This document shows positions 1,581 to 19,637 of a stretch of DNA of 64,000 bases, in pieces (the first letter of the stretch is position 1; every line of letters starts with the position of its first letter). The stretch spans positions 1 to 64,000 of the forward strand of contig JBAXJR010000006.1 of NCBI GenBank assembly GCA_037137755.1. The letters are read 5' to 3'. The DNA comes from Methanomicrobiales archaeon. GTDB lineage: Archaea > Halobacteriota > Methanomicrobia > Methanomicrobiales > Methanospirillaceae. Below the pieces are notes generated by a model. The model did no database searches, had not been told where the DNA came from, and was given only the letters and a program-made list of their open reading frames with translations. Both the position numbers and the translations under genes were made by a program.

Positions 1581-2942
1581 ATGATATCAGTCCTGTTCGT
1601 TGATGATGAGCCGGCCCTGCTGGAAATCACACGGCTGTACCTTGAGAAATCAGGGTCAATCACAGTAGAAACCTGCCGGTCTGCGCTTGAAGCGCTGGGG
1701 ATATTAAAAAACCGGCAGTTTGATGTCATTGTGTCAGATTACGAGATGCCACTGATGGATGGGATCATGTTCCTCAAGATCCTCCGGGCTGAAGGCAATG
1801 ACACACCATTCCTGATATTCACCGGAAAAGGACGGGAACATGTTGTGATTGAAGCTCTGAATAACGGGGCTGATTATTACCTCCAGAAAGGGGGTGATCC
1901 GAAGGCCCAGTTCACCGAACTGTCCCACATGATCGAACAGGCATTCCAGCGGCGGAATGTTGAGCAGAACCTGCAGGCCTCCGAGAAATTGCTCGTAGAA
2001 ATAATTAATTTCCTGCCTGATGCAACATTTGCGATTGATACCAGCGGGACGGTAATCTCATGGAACAAGGCCATGGAGGAGATGACTGGTGTACAGGCAG
2101 AGGCGATCATGGGAAAGGGAAATCATGAGTATGCACTTCCCTTTTATGGGGCACGACGTCCGATCCTTATTGACCTGATTATCAAACCTGATGAAGAAGC
2201 CAGGCGGAAATTTTACTCGATTATTAAACATGAGGGTGATATGTTGATAGCAGAAACCGAAAAGGCAAGGCCCGGGGGAAAGCCATCGGTTCTCTGGGCA
2301 AAAGCTACCCCCCTATATAATCCTAAAGGTGAGATCGTTGGAGCTATTGAATCGATCAGAGATATCACAGAATTCAGGAAATCCCAAAAACCCGATATGA
2401 TCCCTGTTGAAGTTGCGCCTGAAAAGGCTGTAAATACCCCTGATTCAGCATCACCTGGCATATTTGATCGCATGTTTGGGAAAACGGCGAATTCATGGTA
2501 CCACAAGGGTGTTGACCTTTACTATAAACACGGGAAGTTCCAGGAATCTCTCCAGGCTTTCGACCGGGTACTTGAGATTGAACCTGATCATGTAGGTGCT
2601 TGGAATGGACGAGGTATCTGCCTAAAGGAACTCGGAAGATACGAAGAGGCAATCCAGTGCTTCAATAAAGTTATTGCAATAAATCCCGGCGATGAGGAAG
2701 TCTATTACAACAGGGGTGAAGCACTTGAAAAACTTGGCAAGAACAACGGGGATTTAAAATTATTTGAAGAGGCGATAAAAAGTTTCGATGCAGTGCTGAA
2801 CCTGAATCCTTATCATGTATACGCCTGGAATTACCGCGGCGTCTGCCTCAAGGAACTCGGGAGGTATGAAGAAGCGAAGCGCTGTTTTGATCATGCGCAA
2901 CTCCTAATCCGGCGTGGCCAGAACAAATCGGAAAGAAGGTGA
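1581..2942 (+). CDS. Response regulator receiver + PAS + TPR repeat protein
   Basis: VLFVDDE...VSDYEMP...YLQK receiver domain; PAS (LPDATFAID...WNKAMEEMTG); TPRs (AWNGRGICLKELGRYEEA, AWNYRGVCLKELGRYEEA). Start moved to ATG 1581, which follows ggag. Confidence 0.9.
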   Translation: MISVLFVDDEPALLEITRLYLEKSGSITVETCRSALEALGILKNRQFDVIVSDYEMPLMDGIMFLKILRAEGNDTPFLIFTGKGREHVVIEALNNGADYYLQKGGDPKAQFTELSHMIEQAFQRRNVEQNLQASEKLLVEIINFLPDATFAIDTSGTVISWNKAMEEMTGVQAEAIMGKGNHEYALPFYGARRPILIDLIIKPDEEARRKFYSIIKHEGDMLIAETEKARPGGKPSVLWAKATPLYNPKGEIVGAIESIRDITEFRKSQKPDMIPVEVAPEKAVNTPDSASPGIFDRMFGKTANSWYHKGVDLYYKHGKFQESLQAFDRVLEIEPDHVGAWNGRGICLKELGRYEEAIQCFNKVIAINPGDEEVYYNRGEALEKLGKNNGDLKLFEEAIKSFDAVLNLNPYHVYAWNYRGVCLKELGRYEEAKRCFDHAQLLIRRGQNKSERR

Positions 2943-3202
2943 TAATTTTTTTCTTGTATTTCGATTGGTTATAATTTCATGAACTTTCCACAGGTAATTT
3001 ATATCTGGATATTCGTCATATTCTAGTATCAAGATGAACTGCAGGTACCTGCCTCGTGACAGGATACCGTGACAGGGTAAAATTTATATTGCAAGGTTTA
3101 TTAAAAAACGAATGAATAGGTACGTTTGCATAATCTCTCCTGGAAACCCGGGAAATATGCAATTTTCCCAGGATAATTGAAATTTCCCGATTTAGGTGCA
3201 CC

Positions 3203-5047
3203 ATGAAGATAACCACTGAGCTGGTGGAAAAAAACAGTATCAAACTCTTTCTTATTGGAATCACCACTATCGGGGCAGTTTTATTTGATATTTTTGGCCA
3301 GGTAAACGGAGTATCAATTTTTGCACCGCTCCTTTTCTTCCTACCCATCATCCTTGCCGCGTACTGGTACCCCCAGAAAGGTGTACTGTATGCCGTTGGT
3401 ATCGGGATCCTGCAACTGGTTCTCGTTTCACAATTTACCTACCTGGATCTTGCCCCACTGACATATGCGACTGCTACAGCGAGTTTTTATGTCCTTGTCG
3501 CGGTTTCAGTGGTCGTATCGGCCCTGTCAGGGAACCTGAACGAGCAGGCTGCACGCTACCAGGCTATCTTTAACAGCTCCCAGGCTGGTGTGATCCTGGT
3601 AGCGAAACAGGAAGATGAGCTGGTAATTGAGGAAGTTAATAAAAGTGCGGGTGCAAGCCTTGGGTACCTGCCGAAAGACATTATCGGTATCCCCCTGAAT
3701 TCTGTCTGGGATGATTCCCAGAAGGTCCAGAAAACAATTGACTGTCTGGAAAAGGCGTACCGTATTTCTGATGTTGAATCTTCCTTCAGGACCCGCCAGG
3801 GCATATTATTTCCTGTACTGGTGACTGCAGCACGCCTGCCGGAGCACCACCTGGTCATTACATTCATGGACATAACCTCAATCCGTAAAGCTGAAGAAGG
3901 ATTAAAACGCCGGAATAACCAGCTTACCACGGTAAATGAAGTAATTACCATCACGTCAAATTCGGAGAGTGTTTATGACCTCCTGGAAAGATCGTTTGGG
4001 AGAATAAAAAAACTGCTGCCGATTACTTCCGGGGCAATCTATCTTCTGGATGGAGACCGGCAACTCCTGGAGGCATACTACCGGTCAGGGGAAGAACATT
4101 GTGTCTCATCATTACCCTTGAATATACCGATCGCAACACCACCGTTTAATGATATCGTGGTCCAGGGAAATGCACTTTATACCACATTCTCTTCGTGTGG
4201 AAATGAATCACATAAACACCAGCTGAGTGCAATTATCCCCATCTGTTGCGAATCGAGGGTGATCGGTCTAGTGTGCCTTGTAAGTCCTGGTAATGAGCAA
4301 TTTGCAGAGGATGACCGGGTTGTACTTGAATCCATAGGAAAAGAGATTGGTTGTGCGGTCCTGAAAATCCGGCTTTCCGATAACCTGATCGAGGCAAACA
4401 GGAAGGCCAACCTGTACCTCGATATCCTGGTACACGATATTAACAATGCAAACCTTGCCTCCCTTGGTTATGGTGAGCTGCTGATGGAAATGTTGTCCGG
4501 GAAAGAGAAAGAAGTGGCAGGGAAATTAATCGAAGGTGTTCTGAAAAGTCGTGAAGTCATACGGAACCTTGATACTATTCGCCATATTCAGGAGAGGAAA
4601 TTAGATTTTAAGGCTATTTATCTTGATAACATAATCAAACAGGAAATCCGGCATTACCCTTCGGCATTGATTGACTTCCCTGGGTGCAATACCCTCGTAA
4701 TGGCGGATGACCTGCTTGCAGAAGTCCTTACCAACCTTATTGGGAATAGTGCAAAATTCGGTGGACCCGGTGTGCATATCGCCATTGACGTGCAGGACAT
4801 TCCTGATAACTTTGTAAAAGTCACTATAACTGACGAAGGCCCTGGTGTACCGGATGAACTGAAATCGGTAATATTCGTACGGTTCCAGACCGGGGAGGAA
4901 AAGGGCAGCGGGAAAGGACTGGGCCTTTTTATCTCAAAAACCCTGGTTGAACGGTATGGAGGAAAAATCTGGGTCGAGGACCGTATCAAGGGTGGTTCAA
5001 GCGGTGGAGCCGCATTCGTGTTTACACTGCCAAAAGCAAATCCCTGA
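3203..5047 (+). CDS. Membrane-bound PAS/GAF sensor histidine kinase
   Basis: N-terminal hydrophobic helices, then PAS and GAF; H-box LVHDINN, N-box NLIGNSAKF, G-boxes DEGPGV and GKGLGL. Confidence 0.92.
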   Translation: MKITTELVEKNSIKLFLIGITTIGAVLFDIFGQVNGVSIFAPLLFFLPIILAAYWYPQKGVLYAVGIGILQLVLVSQFTYLDLAPLTYATATASFYVLVAVSVVVSALSGNLNEQAARYQAIFNSSQAGVILVAKQEDELVIEEVNKSAGASLGYLPKDIIGIPLNSVWDDSQKVQKTIDCLEKAYRISDVESSFRTRQGILFPVLVTAARLPEHHLVITFMDITSIRKAEEGLKRRNNQLTTVNEVITITSNSESVYDLLERSFGRIKKLLPITSGAIYLLDGDRQLLEAYYRSGEEHCVSSLPLNIPIATPPFNDIVVQGNALYTTFSSCGNESHKHQLSAIIPICCESRVIGLVCLVSPGNEQFAEDDRVVLESIGKEIGCAVLKIRLSDNLIEANRKANLYLDILVHDINNANLASLGYGELLMEMLSGKEKEVAGKLIEGVLKSREVIRNLDTIRHIQERKLDFKAIYLDNIIKQEIRHYPSALIDFPGCNTLVMADDLLAEVLTNLIGNSAKFGGPGVHIAIDVQDIPDNFVKVTITDEGPGVPDELKSVIFVRFQTGEEKGSGKGLGLFISKTLVERYGGKIWVEDRIKGGSSGGAAFVFTLPKANP

Positions 5048-6113: not shown

Positions 6114-6698
6114 ATGACGATTGAAGATCTATTATCCGGGAATGAACAATTTAGGACTGTACAGTTTGAGAAATTTATCGATGTGTATCACGAGCTTGCA
6201 AAAGGGCAGAAACCCCAGGTACTATGGATTGGGTGTTCGGATTCACGATTACAGACAGGGCATATTACTGATTCAATGCCGGGAACCCTGTTTATCCACA
6301 GAAATATCGGGAATATTGCGGCCTTCAATGACTGGAATCTTTCGACCGTGCTTGAGTACGGGATCAAGCATCTTAAAGTCAAGCATATCGTGATCTGCGG
6401 GCATTCCGACTGCGGGGCAATAAAAGCCCTCGATAAGGACCTTGATGATGCCTATATTCCTCACTGGCTCAACAATGCAATGGATGCAAAAAAGCGTGTG
6501 GATGCGAAGATCCCAAAGCCCGTTACGCCAGCAGAATTAAAGGAACGTTCACGGATGATCGAACAGGAGAATGTAAGGCTGCAGATCGAGCATTTAAAAT
6601 CTTATCCCCTTGTCATCAATGCAATAGAAAAAGAGGGTGTCCTGATACACGGTCTTTATTATGATCTGGAGACCGGGTTGCTTACAAAAATTGTATAA
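6114..6698 (+). CDS. Beta-class carbonic anhydrase
   Basis: Zn motifs IGCSDSR and CGHSDCGA; HRNIGN. Confidence 0.95.
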   Translation: MTIEDLLSGNEQFRTVQFEKFIDVYHELAKGQKPQVLWIGCSDSRLQTGHITDSMPGTLFIHRNIGNIAAFNDWNLSTVLEYGIKHLKVKHIVICGHSDCGAIKALDKDLDDAYIPHWLNNAMDAKKRVDAKIPKPVTPAELKERSRMIEQENVRLQIEHLKSYPLVINAIEKEGVLIHGLYYDLETGLLTKIV

Positions 6699-7701: not shown

Positions 7702-8208
7702 CTACATAAATCTTTCAAACCTGTCTTTTTTAGCTTTACAAACCGGGCAGACCAGGGGGGCTTCATCCCTGGCGCAGAGATAGCCGCAAACCCTGCAGCG
7801 CCAGACCGGGAATGACAGGGATCCTGTCTGGGTTGTATGAATCGTTTTCCTGCTGTTTCTTTCACACCTCGGGGGCCTTCGTTCAGGCACGGACGAAAGG
7901 GACTGTTTATTCGACAGGATAGCATCAGAAACATACAATGCGCAGTAGCAGGCACCATACTGGTCAAGATCCGGGTCCCGGTAATCGCAGGGACATATGA
8001 TATCGAGATCTTCAGCTTTTATTCCCCTTGAGAGGCGGCAGGGACACGCTGGATAGCCATACCGGGCTTCGTTTCTAAGCAATCCACGGACAAGTTTTAT
8101 TGTGAACTCCTTGTCCGGGCCAAGGTGGTAACCGCCATCTCTTGCTTCGCGGTCAAGGAGCTGGTACTTTTTCTCAACGTCCTCTTCACTGATATCCGCC
8201 AGGTTCAT
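7702..8208 (-). CDS. Ferredoxin:thioredoxin reductase catalytic domain fused to a C-terminal rubredoxin (FDR-type ferredoxin:disulfide reductase)
   Basis: CPCR, ICPC and CYC motifs, plus C-terminal CRVC...CPVC. Confidence 0.9.
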
Positions 8209-8486
8209 ATCCTGAATGCACCCCTGATCTCTTCCTCCCTGAACCCTACTACCACTTTTTTGTCATCGATGATAAGGGTAGGAAACGATCCGGCCGGGTT
8301 ATTTTTCTCAATAAGTGCAATCGCCGCATCAATTTCTTCAGGTGGGAGGAGATCGACATAAACAAAATCAAAGGCTATTCCGAGTTCTTTCAATAATTCC
8401 CTGGTCTTCCCACACCACCCGCACGTTGAGAGTGCAAACAGTACGACCTTTCCTGCATTTTTTCCATCAACATGTTCCATTTTCAT
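8205..8486 (-). CDS. Glutaredoxin/NrdH-like redoxin (methanoredoxin-like)
   Basis: LSTCGWC active site and SFPTLII; overlaps the FDR start by 4 nt. Confidence 0.88.
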
Positions 8487-8673
8487 AACATTCACCACGC
8501 CATAAGGTGTTCTTGCCAATTAGCATTGATAGAAGTAGTATATAAGGATTCATTGAGTGACTTGTAGTGCAGCTTTCGTGCTCATAGTTTTAAAATCGGA
8601 TTTGTGACCATTTATACCCTCATTATCATGGGATGGGGGTCATTACGGTAACATGCAGTATTGTTCAGATTAC

Positions 8674-8748
8674 TATTCCGGATAATCCCGTGTAAAATAA
8701 GTTCAGCCTGATTACAGGCACCCAAATAGATTGGGATTATCCGAAATA
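8674..8748 (+). promoter_or_regulatory. Inverted repeat / candidate structured leader upstream of the acs operon
   Basis: tattccggataatccc (8674-8689) pairs with gggattatccgaaata (8733-8748) at 15/16 positions; inner hairpin gcctg-atta-caggc (8706-8719). Confidence 0.55.
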
Positions 8749-8787
8749 ATTTACCATATGGCGATGGAATACTTGTAACAGAGGAAA

Positions 8788-10824
8788 ATGCCGATGACCG
8801 ATATAAAGACCGCTATAACGCTTGGCAATGCAAGCCTGAAGAAAAAGTTGAATACTATCCAGGGGCCGCTTGCGTATGAAGAGACTGCCTATCACCTGCC
8901 TGTTGCCTATGCCCTGACCGGTCGCCCGGTACATTCGTCACAGGAAGCACTCGAGGTATACCAGCTCACCAGTGAGAATCCTTTTGTTGCATGTGAGTCA
9001 TTAATGGCCTTTTCTGAACAGGGTCCCGGTCGCGAACCTTCCCCCTATTCCGGGTTTATCGGGGATGCAGTGCTCAGGAAACTCGGGTATTCCCTTGTCG
9101 ACGGGAGTATACTTGGTCTTGCCCTTGTCATCGGAACTCCAGGTAACGCCGATACGGCCTCGCGGATATGTCGTGAACTTCAGGAGAAATATATGCTCAC
9201 CTTCCTTGCAGGAGACGTGGTGGCCTCTCTCTCGTCAGCATCTGTGAAACTTGGACTTGAATACAGGCTTATTCCTCTCGGTTCAACATCGGTCCATGGT
9301 GTGCATTTTGTAGATATCATTACCCGTGTTGCCCTGATGTTCGGCGGGGTAGTCCCCGGAGACCCGGGCAGGCTGCTTGCCTATGCAAACCAGCGTGCAA
9401 AGGCGGTTGCCATAGTATTTCCGGGTCTCGATAATGAAGGCATTGCATTGGTTGACGCTCTCCGCCTCCTTGGTATCCCTATCATTTCTCTTGGTGGATA
9501 TGAGGGTGGCGAGTGGATCACTGCAGTCCCCCAGGACGCAGTCAGGGAAGGGATGGAAAGAAAAGGGATCAAGGTCACGGTCACGGCTATTCCGATCCCA
9601 ATGTCCTGCTCCCCGGCATTTGAAGGCAAGAGCATAAGAAAAGAAGAGATGTATGTGGAATTCGGCGGGGGACGTTCTCCGGCCTTTGAGTTACTTCGTG
9701 TAAAACCAGCATCTGAAGTCACGGATGGCCTGATCCGTGTAGTCGGTCCGGAAATCGAATCTGTTAAGGAGGGTTCGGCTGTCCCGCTTGGTATTATCGT
9801 TGAGGTCGCCGGAAAATCAATGAAAAAGGACTTCGAACCTGTTTTAGAGCGGCGGATCCATAATTTTGTCAATTATGGTGAAGGTTCCTGGCATGTTGCA
9901 CAACGTGATCTCATCTGGGTGCGGATATCAAAAGAAGCAGTTAAGAATGGAATAAAAATCGAGCATATCGGTAAGCTGATCGCGACCAAGTTCAGGATCG
10001 ATTTCCCGGACCTCCTGGACGCCGTCCAGGTAACCATGGTGACAGATCTTAAGGCGGTTGAGGCAGGCAAAAAGGAAGCGGAGGCGATGTACGAGGAACG
10101 CGACAGGCGAATCCAGGGAATGAAAGATACCGATGTTGACTTATTCTATTCCTGCACGCTCTGCCAGACCTTTGCACCAAACCATGTCTGTATTATCACA
10201 CCTGAAAGGCCCGCATTATGTGGTGCAATATCCTGGCTGGACGGAAAAATTGCCTATGAAATATCCCCTTCGGGAGCAAACCAGCCGGTAGAGAAAGGGG
10301 GTGTCATTGACCGGGATAAGGGCGAATTTGAAGGGGTGAACCGCTTTGTAAAGAAAGCCTCGCATGGCGAGGTTGAACGGTGTTCCCTTTACAGCATCAT
10401 GGAATACCCTATGACCTGCTGCGGGTGCTTTGAGTGTATTGCGCTGATGCTCCCAGAAGTGAATGGTATCATGGTCGTGAACCGTGAATACAAGGGGGAC
10501 ACACCATCCGGGATGTCATTTTCCACGCTGGCCGGGACAATCGGGGGTGGAGCCCAGACACCGGGTTTTGCCGGAATCTCTAAAAATTACATCCTTTCTG
10601 ACCGGTTTTTGCAGGATGAAGGGGGAATTGAACGACTTGTCTGGCTCCCCTCCCTGGTAAAAGAGGAACTGAAAGATCGGCTCGTTAAGAAACTGAATGA
10701 ACTAGGTCATCCTGACCTGTTTGAAAAAATTGCCGATGATACGAAGGCGACGACCTTAGAGGAACTGATTGCATTTCTTGACGAAGTTCAGCACCCGTCG
10801 CTCACGATGAAACCGTTACTCTGA
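8788..10824 (+). CDS. acsB: Acetyl-CoA synthase, long bacterial-type AcsB (CdhC homolog with the N-terminal domain)
   Basis: A-cluster motifs SCTLCQTFAPNHVC...LCGA and PMTCCGCFE; N-terminal ETAYHLP and PYSGFIGDAVLRKLG segments; 678 aa. Confidence 0.95.
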   Translation: MPMTDIKTAITLGNASLKKKLNTIQGPLAYEETAYHLPVAYALTGRPVHSSQEALEVYQLTSENPFVACESLMAFSEQGPGREPSPYSGFIGDAVLRKLGYSLVDGSILGLALVIGTPGNADTASRICRELQEKYMLTFLAGDVVASLSSASVKLGLEYRLIPLGSTSVHGVHFVDIITRVALMFGGVVPGDPGRLLAYANQRAKAVAIVFPGLDNEGIALVDALRLLGIPIISLGGYEGGEWITAVPQDAVREGMERKGIKVTVTAIPIPMSCSPAFEGKSIRKEEMYVEFGGGRSPAFELLRVKPASEVTDGLIRVVGPEIESVKEGSAVPLGIIVEVAGKSMKKDFEPVLERRIHNFVNYGEGSWHVAQRDLIWVRISKEAVKNGIKIEHIGKLIATKFRIDFPDLLDAVQVTMVTDLKAVEAGKKEAEAMYEERDRRIQGMKDTDVDLFYSCTLCQTFAPNHVCIITPERPALCGAISWLDGKIAYEISPSGANQPVEKGGVIDRDKGEFEGVNRFVKKASHGEVERCSLYSIMEYPMTCCGCFECIALMLPEVNGIMVVNREYKGDTPSGMSFSTLAGTIGGGAQTPGFAGISKNYILSDRFLQDEGGIERLVWLPSLVKEELKDRLVKKLNELGHPDLFEKIADDTKATTLEELIAFLDEVQHPSLTMKPLL

Positions 10825-10835
10825 GGTGGTTGTTG

Positions 10836-11789
10836 ATGGCAGAAAACAGCCCGGATCAGGGCGGAAAAATTGAATATATCGTCCTTGGTGCAACAAAGGC
10901 AGAAGGCGGAACAAGGTCGGTTTCATACCGTATAGGCGGTGAATCAGATCTTCCATTCATAGGGATGAAAACCGGGCAGGGCTCGATCCCTCTTGTGGCG
11001 TTTGAAATTTGTGATGACCCTGCATACTGGTCCACGATAGTGACTTCCTATGCTGGCGATCTCGTCACTGCTACCCAGGAATGGGCGGGGGCAGCTGAAA
11101 AACAATATGGGGCTGACCTTGTCCGGCTATACCTGACCAGTACAAAACGTCGCGGATTTGACGACTTCCCCTCAATTACCAAGGTAACTGAAGAAGTATT
11201 ATCCAGTTCCGGACTTCCACTGATCATTGAAGGGAGCAATGAACCATCGATCGACTCAGAAGTATTCCAGAGGTGTGGTGAGGCCGGGCAGGGGGAACTC
11301 CTGCTCCTTGGTACAGCCGAGGCAGGGAGGTACCGTAGTGTTGCCGCTGCAGCGATGGCGTATAACCATTCCGTTGTAGCACAATCCCCAATTGACATCA
11401 ATCTTGCAAAACAACTCAACATACTTCTCCGTGAAATCGGTGTTAAATCGGACCATATTATGATTGATCCGTATACAGGGTCGCTCGGATATGGGTTTGA
11501 GTATTCCTACTCCGTGATGGAACGGATCCGCTATGCCGCGTTAAAGGGGGATACAGATCTTGCCATGCCTATGATAACCTCTGCCAGCGACTCCCTCAGC
11601 GTTAAGGAAGTCAGGGAGGCAGATCCTGCTATCAGGGATGATGTTGCGGTAGCATGGGAATTTTATGCAGCGCTTTCCTCGGCTGTTGCGGGGTCTTCCA
11701 TTGTGTGTGTGCGGCACCCGAAGACCGTTCCCCTGCTAAAAAAAGCGTTTCGTGAATTATGGGCAGGAAAAATGCCCGGGGAGGCCTGA
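10836..11789 (+). CDS. acsD: Corrinoid Fe-S protein small subunit (AcsD/CdhD)
   Basis: QSPIDINLAKQLN and DPYTGSLGYGFEYSYSVMERIR motifs. Confidence 0.93.
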   Translation: MAENSPDQGGKIEYIVLGATKAEGGTRSVSYRIGGESDLPFIGMKTGQGSIPLVAFEICDDPAYWSTIVTSYAGDLVTATQEWAGAAEKQYGADLVRLYLTSTKRRGFDDFPSITKVTEEVLSSSGLPLIIEGSNEPSIDSEVFQRCGEAGQGELLLLGTAEAGRYRSVAAAAMAYNHSVVAQSPIDINLAKQLNILLREIGVKSDHIMIDPYTGSLGYGFEYSYSVMERIRYAALKGDTDLAMPMITSASDSLSVKEVREADPAIRDDVAVAWEFYAALSSAVAGSSIVCVRHPKTVPLLKKAFRELWAGKMPGEA

Positions 11790-11793
11790 AATC

Positions 11794-13131
11794 ATGGCAT
11801 TGAAAGCCCTTGATATCTATAAACTTCTGCCTAAAAAGAACTGCAAAGAGTGCGGGGACCCGACATGCCTGACATTTGCAATGAAACTTGCCAGCGGTAA
11901 GGGAGACGTGGAGAAATGCCCGTACCTCGATCTCAATGCAAAAAATATTCTCGGTGCATCAACACGTCCCCCCATCCAGCTGGTGAAAATCGGCGTTGGA
12001 GAACGGAGGTTTGCTGTAGGTGAGGAATTCGTGGTTTTCCGTCATGAAAAGACATTTTACCACCCGCCTGGCATCATGTTCCAGGTATCTGACCTCTGGC
12101 CGGCTGAAGCGATAGAATCCGTGACACGGAGAGTTGGATCAGAACATTTTGTGAGGGTAGGGACAGATCTAACCTTCTCCGGGGTTGCAATCACGAATGA
12201 AAGCGGAAACCCGGATATATTTGCGAAAGCGGTAGGTGTTGTTGAGGCAACAGGGACGCATATCCCCGAGGTATTAATGGCGTCCAACCCTGATGTGCAG
12301 GAAGAAGGCTTAAAAAAGTGCGGGAATTTCCGCCCTCTTATTTACTCCGCCACAAAAGAGACGTACAAACCGATGTGTGCCCTTGCAAAAAAATTCGGGT
12401 CTCCGCTTGTTGTGAGTGCAAAAGACCTTGAATCCCTGGGTGAGATGACGAAACTCTGTAACGCAGAGGGTATAACCGACCTCCTTCTTGACCTTTCGTT
12501 CCCGTCGCTCCGTGATTATATCCCTGCAGCAACCGAAATCCGGCAGAAATCGATCTCCCGTTCAGCACCTGAACTGGGTTATCCTGTCTTCCTTGATACT
12601 ACACGGTACGAAATGCAGGATACGGCGCTCATTCTTGGAATTGACAAATATGCAGGCGTGATCGTTACCCCGGCACTCCCACCTGCGTCATCAGTGGCCG
12701 CCCTCACACTCCGCCAGAACATTTACACGGATCCGCAGAAACCGATCCAGATGAACCCCGGGATCTACCCGGTTGGTATCCCCGGAAAAGAATCCCCGGT
12801 ACTGCTTACCGTAAATTTTTCCCTGACGTATTTCACCGTGCAGGGCTATCTGGAATCGAGCCGGGTTCCATGTTACATGCTCATCGTCGACACTGAGGGT
12901 TTGTCTGTTCTTACAGCGGTTGCAGCGGGGAAACTAAACGAAACCCTCGTCCGGGATTCGATTAAAAAATTCGATCTCGAAAATCTCGTATCGCACCGTA
13001 AGCTGATTATTCCTGGCTATGCATCGCCGCTTTCTGGTAAAATAGAAGAAGAGACCGGCTGGAAAGTCATGGTAGGGCCCCGGGATGCAGCGGAAATCGG
13101 TGATTACCTGGTAAAGGAGTGGAAAATCTAG
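11794..13131 (+). CDS. acsC: Corrinoid Fe-S protein large subunit (AcsC/CdhE)
   Basis: LPKKNCKECGDPTCLTFA...C [4Fe-4S] motif; RQNIYTDPQKP; NFSLTYF; VGPRDA. Confidence 0.95.
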   Translation: MALKALDIYKLLPKKNCKECGDPTCLTFAMKLASGKGDVEKCPYLDLNAKNILGASTRPPIQLVKIGVGERRFAVGEEFVVFRHEKTFYHPPGIMFQVSDLWPAEAIESVTRRVGSEHFVRVGTDLTFSGVAITNESGNPDIFAKAVGVVEATGTHIPEVLMASNPDVQEEGLKKCGNFRPLIYSATKETYKPMCALAKKFGSPLVVSAKDLESLGEMTKLCNAEGITDLLLDLSFPSLRDYIPAATEIRQKSISRSAPELGYPVFLDTTRYEMQDTALILGIDKYAGVIVTPALPPASSVAALTLRQNIYTDPQKPIQMNPGIYPVGIPGKESPVLLTVNFSLTYFTVQGYLESSRVPCYMLIVDTEGLSVLTAVAAGKLNETLVRDSIKKFDLENLVSHRKLIIPGYASPLSGKIEEETGWKVMVGPRDAAEIGDYLVKEWKI

Positions 13132-15048
13132 ATGCCATCAATCACATTCCTTCCAAGTTACCGGAAGATCACCGTGGATTCAGGGAGTACCATTCTCGAT
13201 GCAATCCAGCGTGCCCAGATCCAGATGAATGTCGTCTGCGGCGGGCAGGGCAAGTGCGGGAAATGTATTGTCTATATAAAAAACGGCTCGGTGGAATTTG
13301 ATCGTGAAAAATTTGGTAAATTTTTTACGGTAGCTGAACTTAACCTGGGTGCCTGTCTCGCCTGCCAGGCGGTTGTCAGGGATGACCTCCAGGTCATGAT
13401 CCCGGAAAGTTCACTCATCCAGCAGCAGAAAATCCTGATGGAGTCCCTTGGGATCGAGACTCCCTTCCAGCCTTCTGTATGGAAATATTATGTGGAACTC
13501 TCCCCCCCGACACTGGAAGACCCGTCTCCTGACCTTACAAGGCTTGTGTGGGGGATCCAGAAGCAGGGTGGACCCGAGGCAGAAAAAATGTATGCACCAC
13601 TGGACGTCCTCAGGGGGATGCCACGTGTCCTCCGTAACAGCGGGTGGCGGGTAACCGCAACACTTGCCCTTGTACCGGGCGGGTACCGGATCATTGACCT
13701 CGAGAAAGGAGACACAAGGTCGGAACTTTACGGTGTTGCCGTTGATCTGGGTACCACCACGGTAGTTGCGTATATCCGCAGCCTCGTAGATGGGCATGTT
13801 GTTGGTATCGCGTCAAATTATAACCGTCAGATCAGCTGTGGTGAGGACATCCTCTCGCGTGTGAATTTTGCAAGAAAGAACGGGCTTCCTAAACTGCAGG
13901 CGCTTGCTGCCGAGAGCATCAACCTCGCCATCACCTCTGCGGCAAATGGAGCCGGAATCGACAGGGAGGACATCTACGAGGTCGTCGTGGCAGGGAACAC
14001 AATTATGACCCATATTCTGTTGGGTATTGACCCTGCGTACATGATCGAGGAGCCCTATGTTCCGGTGGTCCGGCGCTACCTGACTACCGCAGCACCAAGG
14101 CTGGGAATTGAAGTTGCGCAGGATGCGGCAGTTTTCTTATTCCCCGCCGTTTCTGATTTCATAGGTGGTGATATCATTGCTGATATCCTGGCATCCGGCA
14201 TGGGTGAACGGGATGAAGTATCCCTTCTTGTGGATATCGGAACGAATTTTGAGGTGGTACTGGGGAACCGGGACTGGATGTTCTCGTGTGCCGGTGCTGC
14301 AGGGCCTGCCCTCGAGGGTGGGGAGGTCCTCTTTGGGATGAGAGCGAACCCTGGTGCGATTGAACGTATCACGATTGATCCGGTAACGCTGGAGCCCGAA
14401 TTCCAGACCATAAACAGTGTTACACCGGTTGGGATATGCGGCTCCGGTTTGATCGATCTCCTTGCCGGCCTTCTTCAGGCCTGTGTAGTGGACAGGACCG
14501 GGCGTATCAATACCGGGATTATCCATCCCCGTATCAGGCAGGGCATCCATTACCCGGAATATGTTATTGCATGGAAAAAGGAAAGCGGTAATGACAAGGA
14601 TATTGTCATTACCGAGAATGATATCAAGAACCTGATCATGAGTAAGGCATCGGTGCTTGCGGCATGCATTACCCTGATGAAAGAGGCCGGGATTACAAGA
14701 ACCGAGATATCTACTATCTATTTTTCAGGGGCATTCGGGAATTATATCCACAAGGAAAATGCGATAATGATTGGGCTTATTCCTGAAGTCCCCATTGAGC
14801 AGATTAAAAATATCGGGAACGGGGCCGTTGAGGGCGCAAATATGGCATTGATCAACCGGAAAAAAAGAAAAACACTGGATGAAATTGCAAAGAATATCGC
14901 CTATATTGAATTGAACGCCGAGTCATCCTTTATGGACGAGTATACGGGCAGCGCGTTCCTGCCCCATACAGACCTCTCGTTATTCCCCCGTGTCCAGAAA
15001 ATGCTCGAAGAGTGCCGCCTTAAAAAAATCCCCACGGGAGTGCCATAA
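13132..15048 (+). CDS. acsV: ASKHA-domain reductive activator of corrinoid protein (RACo/AcsV) with N-terminal [2Fe-2S]
   Basis: CGGQGKCGKC...LAC; VDLGTTT; VDIGTNFE; GPALEG; GICGSG; SGAFG; IGNGA. Confidence 0.9.
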   Translation: MPSITFLPSYRKITVDSGSTILDAIQRAQIQMNVVCGGQGKCGKCIVYIKNGSVEFDREKFGKFFTVAELNLGACLACQAVVRDDLQVMIPESSLIQQQKILMESLGIETPFQPSVWKYYVELSPPTLEDPSPDLTRLVWGIQKQGGPEAEKMYAPLDVLRGMPRVLRNSGWRVTATLALVPGGYRIIDLEKGDTRSELYGVAVDLGTTTVVAYIRSLVDGHVVGIASNYNRQISCGEDILSRVNFARKNGLPKLQALAAESINLAITSAANGAGIDREDIYEVVVAGNTIMTHILLGIDPAYMIEEPYVPVVRRYLTTAAPRLGIEVAQDAAVFLFPAVSDFIGGDIIADILASGMGERDEVSLLVDIGTNFEVVLGNRDWMFSCAGAAGPALEGGEVLFGMRANPGAIERITIDPVTLEPEFQTINSVTPVGICGSGLIDLLAGLLQACVVDRTGRINTGIIHPRIRQGIHYPEYVIAWKKESGNDKDIVITENDIKNLIMSKASVLAACITLMKEAGITRTEISTIYFSGAFGNYIHKENAIMIGLIPEVPIEQIKNIGNGAVEGANMALINRKKRKTLDEIAKNIAYIELNAESSFMDEYTGSAFLPHTDLSLFPRVQKMLEECRLKKIPTGVP

Positions 15049-16082
15049 TGGCTGTTCACCTACCCTCACCGCGGAGTCTTGCGACCGGAGTCGGGAGCGT
15101 TCCCCATTCAGACCCTGTAAAAGCCTGTGATGAGGTAATCAGGATATTCCCGCAGTTACCGTATGCGCCTACCCTTCCGAACCGGGGACTCCTGGAAAAT
15201 ATCGTATTTTGTGATTCGGAACGCCTGCCCGGAAGCGTAATCCGGGAGGGGCGGCTCTTTGTTGACCGTGAGGCTGATCTTCCGGGTGAAATGGAACAGA
15301 TTTACCTTGATTACATTGAGGAGAATTATTCCCCCTATGCTGTTGCACCGGAATATGCATCAGGCTTTCATGAATTTAAAAAGAGGTCGTTTCATTCACC
15401 CTTCGCACTGAAATGCCAGGTAACCGGACCCGTAACATTTGGTATGCAGGTGGTGGACGCAGAGAAACGTCCGGTGTATTACGACAGCCAGTATGCCGAT
15501 GTCCTCTCGAAACTAATCGCTCTCCGTGCCCGTTGGCTTGAACAGTCACTTACCGGGATAGCTGGTGGAACTCATACCCTGGTGATGGTGAACGAACCGT
15601 ACCTCGCAGCCCTTGGGTCATCGGTAGTACCGATAGACATGGATACAGTCAAATCAGGATGGCATGATATCGCTGTTCTGCTCAAGGGGAGCATCGGTAT
15701 TCATTGCTGCAGTAATACAGACTGGAGTTTTATCTTTTCCCTTGACCCGGGTGTCGTATCATTCGATGCCTACGCGACGACGAAGGAATTTCTCCTGTAT
15801 AAGGACGACCTTTTTACCTATCTCGAACATGGCGGGGTGGTCGCATGGGGTGTTGTGCCTGCAGACAACCGGGTTTTTTCCGGGGAAACCCCGGAATCAC
15901 TGTATGAACGCTACATTCGCATCAGGAAAGAAGTGACCTCGTATATCCCTGAAAAATTATTCGATGCCCAGTCAATGATAACTCCCAGTTGTGGCATACG
16001 ATTTGCCACTGAATCAGAATCGTGTAAAATTATGGAAACTGCCGCAATGATATCAGCCCGTGTAAGAGGGGAATCCAATTGA
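15048..16082 (+). CDS. Core (folate-independent) methionine synthase, MesB-like single-barrel MetE homolog
   Basis: TGVGSVPH, KCQVTGPVTF, NEPYL, Zn site GIHCC, SFDAY, AWGVVP, ITPSCG; 344 aa; start overlaps the acsV stop (TAATG). Confidence 0.8.
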   Translation: MAVHLPSPRSLATGVGSVPHSDPVKACDEVIRIFPQLPYAPTLPNRGLLENIVFCDSERLPGSVIREGRLFVDREADLPGEMEQIYLDYIEENYSPYAVAPEYASGFHEFKKRSFHSPFALKCQVTGPVTFGMQVVDAEKRPVYYDSQYADVLSKLIALRARWLEQSLTGIAGGTHTLVMVNEPYLAALGSSVVPIDMDTVKSGWHDIAVLLKGSIGIHCCSNTDWSFIFSLDPGVVSFDAYATTKEFLLYKDDLFTYLEHGGVVAWGVVPADNRVFSGETPESLYERYIRIRKEVTSYIPEKLFDAQSMITPSCGIRFATESESCKIMETAAMISARVRGESN

Positions 16083-16128
16083 TAAAAGGAGATAGAAGTG
16101 AATTTTTAGACCGTCCTGGCAGTTACGG

Positions 16129-16911
16129 GTGGTACCTGTGATCGTCCCGTATACCATTGCTGTCGTCGGGAAAGGGGGTACCGGGAAGACGACAATTAGT
16201 TCACTTCTTGTGCGGGCCCTTATCGGGCTTGGAAAATCTCCGGTCCTTGCCGTGGATGCTGACCCGAATGCAAATTTCAACGAGGCACTTGGAGTGGAGG
16301 TCCTTGAAAACCTGGGCGGGATGCGTGAGGATGCTTTTTCGAAGAGTATTCCTGCCGGGATGACCCGCATCGATTATATAAAGTTCCGGTTTTACCAGGT
16401 CCTTGTTGAGGACGACGGGTTTGACCTGATAGCGATGGGCCGGCCTGAGGGGACCGGGTGTTATTGCTTTGCAAATGACCTCCTCAAAACCTGTATGCGT
16501 CTTCTTGAGCGGGATTACCAGTTTATTATTATTGATTCTGAGGCGGGGATGGAACATATCAGCAGGGGCACTATCGGCATCCCTGACCTTCTCCTTATCG
16601 TGAGTGACCCTGGTGCACGAGGGCTCCGTACAGCCTCACGGATTATCGATATTGCCCTTGACCTTGGGATAAACCGCTCCGCCATGCACCTGGTTTTCAA
16701 CAGGTATAAAAGTGGTGTTGCCCCGGCAGGGGTTTTTGAGGTTACCCCCCTCGCGGTAATCCCCTACGATCCTGCGGTAGAGGCTGCAGACCTTGCGGCG
16801 ACACCAGTCTCCCAGATCCCGGACGGGAGTCCTGCGAGGGAAGCGGTAACGGAAATTGCAATGAAACTGGTCGGATTTGCCGATGAAAAAGAAAAGGAAC
16901 GGGTAAAATAA
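16129..16911 (+). CDS. CooC/AcsF-type nickel-insertion ATPase
   Basis: GKGGTGKTT, VDADP, GTGCYC and EAGMEHISRG motifs. Exact start is uncertain. Confidence 0.9.
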   Translation: MVPVIVPYTIAVVGKGGTGKTTISSLLVRALIGLGKSPVLAVDADPNANFNEALGVEVLENLGGMREDAFSKSIPAGMTRIDYIKFRFYQVLVEDDGFDLIAMGRPEGTGCYCFANDLLKTCMRLLERDYQFIIIDSEAGMEHISRGTIGIPDLLLIVSDPGARGLRTASRIIDIALDLGINRSAMHLVFNRYKSGVAPAGVFEVTPLAVIPYDPAVEAADLAATPVSQIPDGSPAREAVTEIAMKLVGFADEKEKERVK

Positions 16912-17060: not shown

Positions 17061-17786
17061 ATGGAATCCTCTGAACGGGAAGATTATCTCGAAGCAGTAC
17101 TGGTGAGGCATCTTGCTGCCCGGATCCCACCTTCCGTCAAAGATGTCGCGGAAGACCTGTCATTGGGGGAGAATACCGTATCCGCGGACTTAAAAAGTCT
17201 TGAAAATCTGGGGGACCTTGTTTTCGATGAAAAAGGGACTATCCGCCTCACGGTTCATGGACAAAGTACAGCAGAGCGTGTACTGAAAAAACATCGTGTC
17301 CTCCAATGCTTTCTAGGGGAGATCCTTGGGATGGAGGAGCATGCTGCCTCTGATGAGGCGTGTGTACTAGAGCACACCATATCCGATAGTGCTATCAACA
17401 GGATAGGCAACTACGTGAAAAAAGCCGGGTCCCGTAGAGGCCGGTATAGGAAAAATACCCCCCTTTCCAGGCTAACGAACAATACTAATCCGAAACCCCC
17501 CGACCTATGCTTAATGCCTGGAATACATAAGGCACCCCCCACGGGACCAAATACCGGTCTGATGTTTGGTTCTCTTATCGATGCGACGGAATCCATACCC
17601 CTGACCGTCATGGGGATCACGGGAGGTGAATATCTTCACCGCTTAATCGACCTCGGGGTGATTCCCGGGGAAGTGGTTATTTTAAAGAGGAAACTGCATA
17701 ACAACGCAGTAGTCCTCCAGGTTAAGGAGTGCGATATCGCGTTATCACCTGAGATTGCAGGGACCATTCTTGTGGAGAAAATATAA
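17061..17786 (+). CDS. DtxR/MntR-family metal-dependent regulator with C-terminal FeoA domain
   Basis: EDYLEAV; KKHRVLQCFL...EACVLEH; C-terminal HRLIDLGVIPG...IALSPEIA. Confidence 0.9.
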   Translation: MESSEREDYLEAVLVRHLAARIPPSVKDVAEDLSLGENTVSADLKSLENLGDLVFDEKGTIRLTVHGQSTAERVLKKHRVLQCFLGEILGMEEHAASDEACVLEHTISDSAINRIGNYVKKAGSRRGRYRKNTPLSRLTNNTNPKPPDLCLMPGIHKAPPTGPNTGLMFGSLIDATESIPLTVMGITGGEYLHRLIDLGVIPGEVVILKRKLHNNAVVLQVKECDIALSPEIAGTILVEKI

Positions 17787-19637
17787 ATGAAGATCGGGCT
17801 TATCGGAAATCCGAATGTCGGGAAATCCCTGATCTTCAACCAGTTAACCGGGCTCGGTGTAGAGGTAAGTAATTATCCCGGTACGACGGTCGGGGTCGAA
17901 AAGGGACATGTCTGTTACCAGCGTGAAAAATTTGAAATCTGCGACCTTCCAGGCATTTATTCGCTGGACGGGGATTCAGGCGAAGAGAAACTTGTTAATG
18001 GCATGCTGGAGCGTCATGAACTTGACCTGGTAATTGCAATACTGGATGCTGTCCACCTTGAAAGAAACCTGTACCTGTTTCTGCAGGTGGCGGAATATAA
18101 CCTGCCGCTGCTTGTTGTCCTGAACATGGTGGACGAGGCAGAAAAATTCGGTATATCTGTAGACTCCACAGAATTATCGAAAATTCTTGGTTGCCCGGTC
18201 ATTATGACCGCTGCTATTCACGGGAGAGGGACTGGCCTGATTCTCCCTTCTGCACTCAGTTCTGCATGCCCTGCAACCGTTACCGTTGCATACGACCACC
18301 ATATCGAGGCTGCTGTCAGAAGCATTATGGGGAATTTCCCTGTCTCAAGACCGGCAGCCATCCGGTCACTCGAAGGAATTGGGACTGACCAGGAAATACT
18401 TGACACATCTGCCGCAATTGCGAACGAGATTGAAAACCGGCACAAGATGTCCCCGCGCCAGATAATCTCTGCAAACCGTCACCATTTTGCGGAACAGGTA
18501 GCAGACCGTGTGATTACCATCCGGCAGAAAAAGCCCGGATATGACCTTGACCAGCTCCTCACAAAGGGGATCCCGGGTATCCCTATCATGGTGGCCATAC
18601 TTATCGGAATACTGCTCGTTGTTTTCACCCTTGGGTCATGGCTTGAAGGGATTATTGTTGCCCTTTTCACAACCTACCTAGTTGAGCCGCTCCTCACACT
18701 CGGTCTGCCGCCTCTCCTGCAGCAGGTGTCAATATCTGTACTACTTGGACTCCAGGCAGGTATTGGGATCGCATTCCCCTTTATTTTCACATTCTATATT
18801 TTCATATCTGTTTTAGAGGACTCTGGTTACCTGACAAGGGCCGCATTCCTGGCAGACCAGGCAATGCATAGGGTCGGCCTGCACGGCCAGGCAATAATCC
18901 CCATGATTCTCGGATTTGGTTGCACTGTGCCGGCAGTGATGAGCCTCCGATTGCTGGCATCACGACGTGAGCGTTTTATCGCCTCCTTTCTCGTGACCAT
19001 GATTCCCTGCTCTGCAAGGACCGTGATTATCGCCGGGGTAGTCGCAACATTTGTGGGTATTTGGTGGGCCCTTTCAATTTACCTGATAGTGTTCATCCTG
19101 GTAGTACTTACCGGGCTGTTTCTCTCCCGGATTACACCCGGAGAGCGATTTGGTATGATAATGGAAATGGCGCCTCTAAGGGCGCCACAGGCAGCGAATG
19201 TAGTAAAAAAGTCCTGGATGAAAATCTCTGAATTTCTCACCATTGCGATGCCACTCCTGATAATAAGCAGTATTATTCTCGGTTTGCTTCAGTATTTCGG
19301 AATAATAACCGCATTTCAGAATTTTATTGCGCCGTTTTCAACCATGGTACTGGGACTTCCCGCGTATGCAACGACGGCCCTTATGTTCGGGATCCTTCGG
19401 AAGGAGATGGCACTTGGCGCATTGGTTGTCCTTGCCGGTACCCCTGCACTGAATACGGTAATGACGCAGGTACAGCTGTATACCTGGGCAATAATCAGTG
19501 TCCTTTTTGTTCCATGTATATCAACGATTGCCGTGCTTTACCGACAGGTGGGGTTAAAGACCGTTGTCTTTGTGACGACCTACACGGTGATTCTCGGGAT
19601 AGCCATTGGTGCATGTATCAACCTGGCCTTTCCCTGA
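17787..19637 (+). CDS. feoB: Ferrous iron transport protein B
   Basis: GNPNVGKS, NYPGTTV, DLPGIYSL, NMVD, LEDSGYL, GFGC and PCSAR motifs. Confidence 0.96.
   Translation: MKIGLIGNPNVGKSLIFNQLTGLGVEVSNYPGTTVGVEKGHVCYQREKFEICDLPGIYSLDGDSGEEKLVNGMLERHELDLVIAILDAVHLERNLYLFLQVAEYNLPLLVVLNMVDEAEKFGISVDSTELSKILGCPVIMTAAIHGRGTGLILPSALSSACPATVTVAYDHHIEAAVRSIMGNFPVSRPAAIRSLEGIGTDQEILDTSAAIANEIENRHKMSPRQIISANRHHFAEQVADRVITIRQKKPGYDLDQLLTKGIPGIPIMVAILIGILLVVFTLGSWLEGIIVALFTTYLVEPLLTLGLPPLLQQVSISVLLGLQAGIGIAFPFIFTFYIFISVLEDSGYLTRAAFLADQAMHRVGLHGQAIIPMILGFGCTVPAVMSLRLLASRRERFIASFLVTMIPCSARTVIIAGVVATFVGIWWALSIYLIVFILVVLTGLFLSRITPGERFGMIMEMAPLRAPQAANVVKKSWMKISEFLTIAMPLLIISSIILGLLQYFGIITAFQNFIAPFSTMVLGLPAYATTALMFGILRKEMALGALVVLAGTPALNTVMTQVQLYTWAIISVLFVPCISTIAVLYRQVGLKTVVFVTTYTVILGIAIGACINLAFP

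Follow-up and report, generated by a model that had tools for sequence, protein, structure and literature searches.

Introduction

Why should a methanogen encode a bacterial-type acetyl-CoA synthase (ACS) and its corrinoid iron-sulfur protein (CoFeSP) in one operon with a methyltransferase of the methionine synthase kind, with no carbon monoxide dehydrogenase (CODH) beside them, and in which direction would such an operon run? This question is raised by a six-gene cassette, acsB-acsD-acsC-acsV-mes-acsF, found in a Methanomicrobiales archaeon (Methanospirillaceae; GCA_037137755.1). The stretch analyzed, referred to here as the window, comprises bases 1–64,000 of contig JBAXJR010000006.1, which is contig C6 of a 2.64 Mb genome of 106 contigs and 90.6% completeness; by the names of its closest protein relatives, the genome would fall in Methanoregulaceae. 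We favor, at a probability of roughly 0.55, the reading that the cassette is a self-contained route from acetyl-CoA through CH3-CoFeSP to a methylated thiol, which bypasses pterins and in which ACS runs backwards. The concept that acetyl-CoA supplies the methyl group of methionine was put forward for Dehalococcoides (Zhuang 2014, as cited; Deobald 2020, PMC7005905). According to the text of the latter, Dehalococcoides mccartyi derives its methionine methyl from the C2 of acetate and lacks CODH, acsE, and metF, and the Dehalococcoides core-MetE accepts methylcobalamin in vitro (PMC7005905). Furthermore, Price 2021 defined the methionine synthases MesA to MesD and noted, in the text to its Fig 3B, mesB-acsC-acsD operons in methanogens, which in many cases encode MesA as well (PMC7857596). 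Both the central idea and its tie to such an operon are therefore largely in the literature already, and the present analysis extends a published idea and overturns no current view; it adds the anatomy of the whole cassette, its presence in both domains, its independence of CODH, and the archaeal drift of both homocysteine contacts.

The Cassette and Its Gene Products

Six open reading frames lie head to tail on the plus strand between positions 8788 and 16911 of the window:

8788..10824, plus strand: acsB, full-length bacterial-type acetyl-CoA synthase, 678 aa (NF040764, 895.5 bits, cut-off 800)
10830..11789, plus strand: acsD, CoFeSP small subunit (NF003376, 347 bits, cut-off 280), probable start ATG 10836
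11794..13131, plus strand: acsC, CoFeSP large subunit (PF04060, PF03599; NF003195, 530 bits), frame open from 11752, probable start ATG 11794
13132..15048, plus strand: acsV/RACo (Fer2, RACo_linker, Raco_middle, RACo_C_ter; NF040756, 553 bits, under its cut-off of 800)
15048..16082, plus strand: mes (P0001), 344 aa, predicted zinc-site thiol methyltransferase of the MesB kind with a MetE fold
16129..16911, plus strand: acsF/cooC-type P-loop ATPase (top PDB match CooC1, 3kje, E 8e-19)

The gaps among acsB, acsD, and acsC are only 5–11 nt, the TAG of acsC (13129–13131) abuts the ATG of acsV (13132), and the TAA of acsV overlaps the ATG of mes as TAATG (15046–15050). The gene identities, their order on one strand, and the tight coupling described in an earlier reading of the letters of this DNA without database searches (hereafter the sequence-only reading) are all confirmed.

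AcsB aligns over residues 26–678 to the ACS of C. hydrogenoformans, its top PDB match (625 bits), and has the cysteines C456, C459, C468, C478, and C545-G-C547, which we take to be the equivalents of the Moorella A-cluster ligands. It carries the N-terminal domain that is absent from archaeal CdhC; its identity to the CdhC of the same genome is 46%, over the C-terminal two thirds of AcsB, and that to the AcsB proteins of four Dehalococcoidia genomes is 43–49%. By their sequence matches, AcsC and AcsD are classed as bacterial-type subunits. The top PDB match of AcsD is the small subunit of Moorella CoFeSP (4djd_D, 207 bits), and its identity to the host's own CdhD is 39%; AcsC, read from ATG 11794, has an N-terminal [4Fe-4S] motif and a corrinoid domain, aligns over residues 1–445 to residues 1–445 of 2h9a_A (362 bits), and is 36% identical to the host's own CdhE. 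All four RACo domains (2Fe-2S ferredoxin, linker, middle, and ASKHA ATPase) are present in AcsV, which is predicted to be an ATP-dependent reductive activator that returns the corrinoid from Co(II) to Co(I). The ATPase encoded by the last gene has a GKGGTGKT P-loop (deviant Walker A) and a C-x-C motif (GCYC), and it follows mes in every archaeal or bacterial locus that extends that far. It is presumed to be the nickel-insertion factor for the A-cluster of AcsB, of either the AcsF or the CooC type, which sequence matches do not separate.

The fifth protein has no sequence match in Pfam, NCBIfam, or PDB even at E = 10; a profile of 85 of its relatives yields in PDB only a weak match to 3rpd (E 0.7), and PF01717 matches just eight of these 85. 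A search of 1.84 billion representative sequences returned 1454 relatives at E ≤ 0.001, many of them full-length with 30–39% identity, in clusters of Chloroflexota, Anaerolineae, and Thermodesulfobacteriota named "methionine synthase II (cobalamin-independent)" or "methionine synthase"; the UniRef name of the Methanospirillum lacunae member is likewise methionine synthase, as an annotation only. The AlphaFold2 model of the protein (mean predicted local distance difference test score 95.6) retrieves MetE catalytic domains at all of the Foldseek PDB ranks 1–25 (best 4l6h, E 5e-9), followed by MesD (3rpd), UroD, and MtaA. There is no folate-binding N-terminal half, and the size fits the ~340 aa of MesB. 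In the 85 sequences, H219, C221, and D240 are invariant and C315 is at least 90% conserved; a set of 35 archaeal sequences shows no variation at these zinc ligands, and at least 110 of 111 bacterial ones conserve them. The zinc ligands of MesB are His-x-Cys, Asp/Glu, and Cys, at residues 214, 216, 235, and 311 of DET0516 (Price 2021, PMC7857596), and the text of that paper provides the offset of +4/+5 between the two numberings. The MetE fold, the named distant relatives, and the fit of the zinc positions are the grounds on which the 344-aa protein is here called Mes and assigned to the MesB kind. The label "MesB-like" of the sequence-only reading thereby survives on fold and distant homologs, as no library sequence match gives the name. 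As a proxy for the Price 2021 criterion of at least 130 bits to DET0516, Mes scores 180–244 bits (32–38% identity) against single full-length relatives in 21 of the 26 genomes of the family of a Dehalococcoidaceae metagenome-assembled genome (MAG).

Two residues of MesB, Ser and Asp at positions 15 and 177 of DET0516, contact homocysteine (Price 2021, PMC7857596). The window Mes retains the serine (Ser17) and has Asn at position 182, the contact Asp being mapped to the D of the DEP motif through the 3rpd alignment on the assumption of a 3-residue tag in that chain. Asn182 could still hold the amino group of homocysteine by a hydrogen bond; a change of substrate is also possible. Nine more positions (42, 52, 53, 105, 133, 178, 207, 248, and 258) are fixed differently in archaeal and bacterial Mes proteins. 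In a tree of 78 Mes sequences, thinned from 146 at 80% identity, the Mes proteins of archaeal cassettes group in a single clade, supported by a Shimodaira–Hasegawa-like approximate likelihood ratio test (SH-aLRT) value of 100 and separated from every bacterial sequence by a long branch. A complex prediction for Mes and the corrinoid domain of AcsC (residues 318–445) scored 0.00 against a mark of 0.32, which gives no verdict and weighs neither way.

Distribution in Archaea and Bacteria

A species-genome scan with the Mes alignment kept 80 loci, of which 37 belong to Methanomicrobiales (Methanoregula, Methanolinea, Methanosphaerula, Methanoculleus, Methanofollis, Methanospirillaceae, and unclassified MAGs) and 43 are bacterial, mostly from Chloroflexota. 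Named carriers include Methanospirillum lacunae and Methanosphaerula subterraneus (L031). Of the archaeal loci, 25 have the six genes in identical order. The remaining 12 are truncated where the contig or locus stops or, in L043, have acsV in fragments, and none shows another order. Because the order recurs so often, the arrangement is not due to chance. A CODH gene is absent within 9 kb at 36 of the 37 archaeal loci, the exception being L026, which has cooS 2 kb downstream of the cassette. At four loci of Methanoregula and Methanospirillaceae (L014 5768–7075, L018, L021 3835–4953, and L047 3532–6289), the acsC–acsV or the acsV–mes junction is interrupted by one to three unrelated genes, for a thioredoxin-like protein, unknown proteins, and a peptidoglycan-binding protein. 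Insertions are therefore tolerated at both places, and none of the inserted genes brings in a methyltransferase.

The order was further surveyed in 151 Methanomicrobiales genomes including the host, of which 122 were rated good; these genomes are relatives of one another, and the counts are descriptive, without a statistical test. Mes is encoded in 57 of the 151 genomes (47 of the 122 good ones), the AcsB N-terminal domain in 56, cdhA in 35, cooS in 82, and MesA in 146 (122 of 122 good ones). Mes and the AcsB N-terminal domain occur together in 55 of the 58 genomes that have either, ~6.2 kb apart on one contig, and the three genomes with just one of them are all incomplete (62–89%). Among the 57 carriers of Mes, cdhA is present in 26 and not in 31, and 23 of the latter have cooS. 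The cooS gene is equally common in carriers (31/57) and non-carriers (51/94). Neither cdhA nor cooS is found in eight of the 57 carriers; five of these eight were searched with PF03063, and three (98, 98, and 96% complete), all with the complete cassette, have no match at all, while the other two have a single PF03063 protein that is 69–81% identical to the Hcp of the host. The cassette is a conserved unit, and it is independent of CODH genes.

Among 251 sampled genomes of the phylum, a lone Mes relative was also found in 15 of the 24 genomes of a second family, with no acs neighbors in the four loci inspected. In three genomes of one genus of that family (L193, G239:C1:1030710-1031715; also G232 and G301), the Mes relative lies in two overlapping frames with an internal TGA, perhaps through a frameshift, a split of the gene, or codon recoding; the gene is whole in other genomes of the family.

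A bacterial twin of the cassette emerged from a metagenome scan with a bacterial relative, P0140, whose 90% cluster bears the names Candidatus Deferrimicrobium and Thermodesulfobacteriota. Eighty loci were obtained and 30, each of at least 7 kb, were examined: 13 contigs have all six genes in the same order, nine have truncated parts of that order, and eight have mes alone. No CODH was found within 9 kb in any of the 30. On one twin contig (L128 14281–18612), genes for a cbb3-type oxidase (CcoN, CcoO/P-like) and a polyferredoxin stand ~3.5 kb downstream, and a PAS histidine kinase is also encoded; this is an unexpected neighborhood for ACS genes, and the cbb3 oxidase does not suggest an acetogen as host.

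The Host Genome

A complete archaeal cdhA-B-C-D-E set is encoded on contig C26 (cdhA 1099 bits) and a lone cooS on contig C5 (685 bits). Matches to the Prismane family are confined to C5, C12, and C26, and the C12 gene is Hcp. The absence of CODH and acsE that the sequence-only reading reported for the window is thus true of its whole contig; "CODH-less" therefore describes the operon and its contig, and also some related carriers, but not the organism. A MesA-type methionine synthase stands on contig C7 (NF002119, 354 bits; PF01717, 148.6 bits), and no BLAST-level similarity of Mes to it was detected in the genome search. The genome-wide look for cdhAB/cooS and mesA, which the sequence-only reading had left to be made, accordingly turned up both, and since MesA is present, the cassette is an accessory route to methionine, not the sole one. 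The same look for acsE, MetH, and full-length MetE, and a search for methylenetetrahydrofolate reductase, found none of them in the 90.6% complete genome, in which the sole Pterin_bind (PF00809) match is a dihydropteroate synthase on C35. Acetate activation is encoded by two AMP-forming acetyl-CoA synthetases above the cut-off, whose matches (C32:5507-7321 and C50:9939-11756) are each flagged with one TAA inside, either the gene end or a break. MtrA is encoded as well.

The C35 dihydropteroate synthase lies in a row with FolD and a CofE-like glutamate ligase (locus L010 557–3038), which suggests a folate-like branch in this methanogen. On C26 (locus L007 70–10523), the cdhA-E operon is followed by an MtgC/MtaC-like corrinoid protein (2666–3331) and a DUF166 protein (1737–2696), and a second RACo-type activase of 543 aa is encoded on the strand opposite to the cdh operon (70–1701); the genome thus has two corrinoid activases, one per ACS system.

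Direction of Flow and Methyl Acceptor

In the route that we favor, AcsB, loaded with nickel through the CooC/AcsF ATPase, would split acetyl-CoA into CoA, CO, and a methyl group, which would pass to the Co(I) of the bacterial-type CoFeSP, AcsCD. Mes would then move the methyl group from CH3-Co(III) onto a thiolate, most likely that of homocysteine, to yield methionine and Co(I), and RACo/AcsV would restore cobalt that had slipped to Co(II) by re-reduction at the expense of ATP. CO would be a by-product, oxidized by a separately encoded CooS or CdhA where present and otherwise lost. In the host, such a route would be an accessory beside MesA and the normal archaeal acetyl-CoA decarbonylase/synthase (ACDS). 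The direction of flow, a direct handover of the methyl group by CoFeSP to Mes, and the identification of the acceptor with homocysteine are what we infer from the following considerations. The operon offers CoFeSP just two methyl partners, AcsB and Mes. Return of a thioether methyl to cobalt is physiologically unfavorable, as in MetE and MetH. With two partners, no acsE found, and this unfavorable return, the workable cycle is one in which AcsB loads CoFeSP and Mes unloads it. Furthermore, the linkage of AcsB with Mes, the CODH-free carriers, the redundancy with ACDS in 26 carriers, and the lack of association with cooS argue for cleavage over synthesis, and the presence of the same cassette in bacteria rules out an acceptor peculiar to methanogens and points to homocysteine. 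The acetyl-CoA-to-homocysteine route of the sequence-only reading is supported in part, AcsB and Mes being the sole methyl partners that the operon offers CoFeSP, but as an accessory route, given MesA. That reading had regarded a CODH encoded elsewhere, in a normal autotrophic complex with this AcsB, as one of the findings that would overturn it. The objection holds by half: a CODH does exist, but with its own CdhC, and cooS is unrelated to the cassette.

Several points weigh against the favored route. The ACDS and cooS of the host could supply CO, with AcsB working synthetically, and MtrH or another enzyme might load CoFeSP from methyl-tetrahydromethanopterin (CH3-H4MPT). With MesA in the host and in all 122 good Methanomicrobiales genomes, methionine can be made without the cassette, and the data offer no motive for a hydrogenotroph rich in CH3-H4MPT to spend acetyl-CoA. 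Clustering is not universal, since mes stands without acs neighbors within 9 kb on eight of the 30 bacterial contigs and at each of the 43 bacterial loci of the species-genome scan, most of them from Chloroflexota. At position 17, archaeal proteins have Ser in eight of 35, Ala in 21, and Gly in six, and bacterial ones have Ser in 107 of 111; at position 182, Asn is found in 28 of 35 archaeal proteins, the window protein included, and Asp in four, and 110 of 111 bacterial ones have Asp. Carriage of the cassette by Methanospirillum hungatei JF1 could not be confirmed by sequence. Direct transfer from CoFeSP to a core MetE has never been shown, Dehalococcoides included, and the relevant passage of Deobald 2020 calls it speculation (PMC7005905).

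Two alternatives give AcsB a different part. In one, which we regard as unlikely, CoFeSP is a branch point in the general sense of Price 2021: it would be methylated from CH3-H4MPT by an enzyme such as MtrH, Mes would draw off the methyl group for methionine, and AcsB would not be the methyl source. Mtr is encoded in the genome, the text of Price 2021 predicts CoFeSP as the donor of MesB in Wood-Ljungdahl organisms (PMC7857596), and Deobald 2020, citing Thauer, states that the methionine methyl of methanogens comes from methyl-H4MPT (PMC7005905). AcsB would, however, be needless on this view in CODH-free carriers; of the 58 genomes that have mes or AcsB, 55 nevertheless have both, and the two genes remain linked in those carriers. 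Moreover, AcsC and AcsD are of the bacterial type, only 36–39% identical to the host's CdhE and CdhD and with bacterial CoFeSP as their best PDB matches; bacterial CoFeSP requires AcsE for the transfer from pterin, and acsE was not found in the genome. In the other, which we hold to be distinctly unlikely, the cassette is a second ACS of bacterial type that makes acetyl-CoA from CO, supplied by CooS or CdhA, and the CoFeSP methyl group, with Mes as a side tap. The host does have cooS and cdhA, the N-terminal domain and A-cluster cysteines of AcsB are retained, cooS is present in 23 of the 31 carriers without cdhA, and in L026 it lies 2 kb downstream of the cassette. This view meets the difficulty that the genome search revealed no enzyme able to pass a pterin-bound methyl group to CoFeSP, that the whole cassette is kept in genomes without any Ni-CODH, that it would be redundant with a complete archaeal ACDS in 26 of the 57 carriers, and that cooS is no commoner in carriers than in non-carriers. 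In addition, M. hungatei, although credited with an ACS complex, still requires acetate in the account of its genome paper (PMC4704411).

The remaining alternatives keep the cleavage of acetyl-CoA and concern the acceptor. MesA is universal in the order and both homocysteine contacts are changed, so archaeal Mes might use another thiol. A shift of its target away from homocysteine, for instance to coenzyme M or some other small sulfur compound, nevertheless seems to us quite improbable. In its favor, both contact positions are changed in most archaeal Mes proteins while the zinc site is invariant, the archaeal clade stands on its own long branch (SH-aLRT 100), and MesA already serves methionine in 122 of 122 good genomes. 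However, the window Mes keeps Ser17, its Asn may still hydrogen-bond the amino group, the M. lacunae member is called methionine synthase by UniRef (annotation only), and the text of Price 2021 treats Gln as an acceptable substitute for Glu in MesA and MesC (PMC7857596). Labeling of M. hungatei JF-1 with 13CH3-acetate gave negligible label in methylmercury, with an incorporation into methane that matched that of methylmercury (PMC11494345); this would argue against a large flux of acetate methyl to methyl-coenzyme M only if JF-1 has the cassette. A wider version, in which the cassette is an ancient mobile unit of bacteria and Methanomicrobiales whose archaeal Mes has moved off methionine and may methylate, for example, coenzyme M, we consider very improbable; coenzyme M as a general acceptor was set low because bacteria share the same cassette. 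A supply of CO for hydrogenase maturation was also considered as the purpose of the cassette, and no evidence was found for or against it.

Relation to Known Systems

The closest counterpart of the favored acetyl-CoA-to-homocysteine route is the system of D. mccartyi. Both have AcsB and AcsCD without acsE or metF and a MetE-fold enzyme of ~345 aa with the zinc site His-x-Cys, Asp, Cys, and the same flow is proposed for both, from the acetyl-CoA methyl through CoFeSP to homocysteine with CO as by-product. Unlike D. mccartyi, whose core-MetE gene sits with those for S-adenosylmethionine synthetase and S-adenosylhomocysteine hydrolase and not with acs genes (PMC7005905), the window has all parts in one operon, RACo and the Ni-insertion ATPase included. 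The host also differs in being a methanogen with a CH3-H4MPT pool, MesA, a full ACDS, and cooS, and in having Asn for the homocysteine-contact Asp in Mes. Ni-CODH is present in this host; the CODH-less state of D. mccartyi is shared by eight of the 57 related carriers and was verified in five of them.

As expected for MesB by Price 2021, AcsC and AcsD are encoded in the genome, here in the same operon, and the mesB-acsCD operons noted in that paper are very probably the same loci as the cassette. The bacterial-type acsB, RACo, acsF, the absence of CODH, the bacterial twin, the changed residues, and the link with acetate-requiring Methanomicrobiales go beyond its text. From a bacterial CODH/ACS operon, the cassette differs in having no acsA/CODH or acsE on its contig, and none is found beside it at 36 of 37 archaeal and 30 of 30 bacterial loci. 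With the archaeal ACDS (cdhABCDE, C26) it shares the A-cluster and corrinoid chemistry; by contrast, ACDS includes the CODH subunits CdhA and CdhB and no Mes gene, the window AcsB has the bacterial N-terminal domain, and AcsC and AcsD best match bacterial CoFeSP. The γ–δ subunits of ACDS, moreover, exchange methyl groups with H4MPT themselves. Mes resembles MesA, the methylcobalamin:homocysteine methyltransferase on C7, as a MetE-fold core without a folate domain, whereas MesA is matched by PF01717 and NF002119 and found in 122 of 122 good genomes and Mes is matched by no library model and found in 47 of 122.

The genome paper of M. hungatei JF1 leaves the role of "Cdh, Mhun_0686-0690" undefined, since the organism needs acetate (PMC4704411), and Anderson 2009 likewise credits M. 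hungatei with the enzyme (PMC2686161). In one family of the survey (f3, which we guess to be Methanospirillaceae), cdhA occurs in none of 12 genomes and the cassette in four of 12, and the "Cdh" of JF1 may for this reason be the cassette. Purine C1 units of M. hungatei derive from the C2 of acetate, which can also reach C1 units through serine (PMC11494345). Beyond Price 2021 and the JF1 genome paper, a search of article texts, which covered few subscription journals and no figures or supplements, found nothing that deals with the cassette as a whole, with its independence of CODH, or with its twin in bacteria. Within that literature it also still holds, as the sequence-only reading supposed, that no archaeal example has been characterized, although Price 2021 notes the mesB-acsCD operons of methanogens.

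Promoter, Expression, and Neighboring Genes

Upstream of acsB, two elements were read in the sequence:

8741..8754, plus strand: putative archaeal promoter, a BRE-like (transcription factor B recognition element) CCGAAA followed by a TATA-like TAATTTAC, ~38 nt 5′ of the acsB ATG
8781..8784, plus strand: ribosome-binding site GAGG

The promoter was judged by what we take to be the archaeal consensus, and an AACGAAA-TATAT motif is similarly placed 5′ of acsB in Methanoregula loci. No Rfam match to a riboswitch or other RNA was found between 7500 and 17500 at E ≤ 0.1. Metatranscriptome contigs from two libraries of one study match the operon at 99–100%, with DNA carry-over possible, and span the acsB/acsD, acsV/mes, and mes/acsF junctions, although contigs cannot prove a single transcript; acsV is mostly without such contigs, which cannot show absence. 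They are a weak hint that the operon is expressed.

Divergent from acsB, the minus strand at 7702–8519 encodes a glutaredoxin-like protein and a fusion protein in which a ferredoxin-thioredoxin-reductase catalytic domain is joined to a rubredoxin-like one, and a β-class carbonic anhydrase is encoded at 6114–6698. Immediately 3′ of the cassette, at 17061–19637, a DtxR-family repressor/FeoA fusion is followed by FeoB; this pair is not conserved beside the cassette in the other Methanomicrobiales loci, and FeoB and DtxR also occur ~5 kb from mes at a locus of the other archaeal family (L194). The flanking genes (glutaredoxin, ferredoxin-thioredoxin-reductase-like, carbonic anhydrase, DtxR/FeoA, and FeoB) were considered as parts of the cassette and set aside as unrelated and not conserved next to it.

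Perspective

The complete operon, with its activase and nickel chaperone, is the most convenient material for reconstituting the predicted step from CoFeSP to a core methionine synthase, for which Price 2021 calls for biochemical tests. Its occurrence in bacteria as well as archaea makes the cassette a clear example of a metabolic module that crosses the boundary between domains. If the favored acetyl-CoA-to-thiol route is true, CODH-free carriers should release CO, which would matter for cross-feeding in methanogenic communities, as it does with Dehalococcoides. It could furthermore explain why acetate-requiring Methanomicrobiales such as M. hungatei keep an ACS whose role its genome paper calls "undefined" (PMC4704411).

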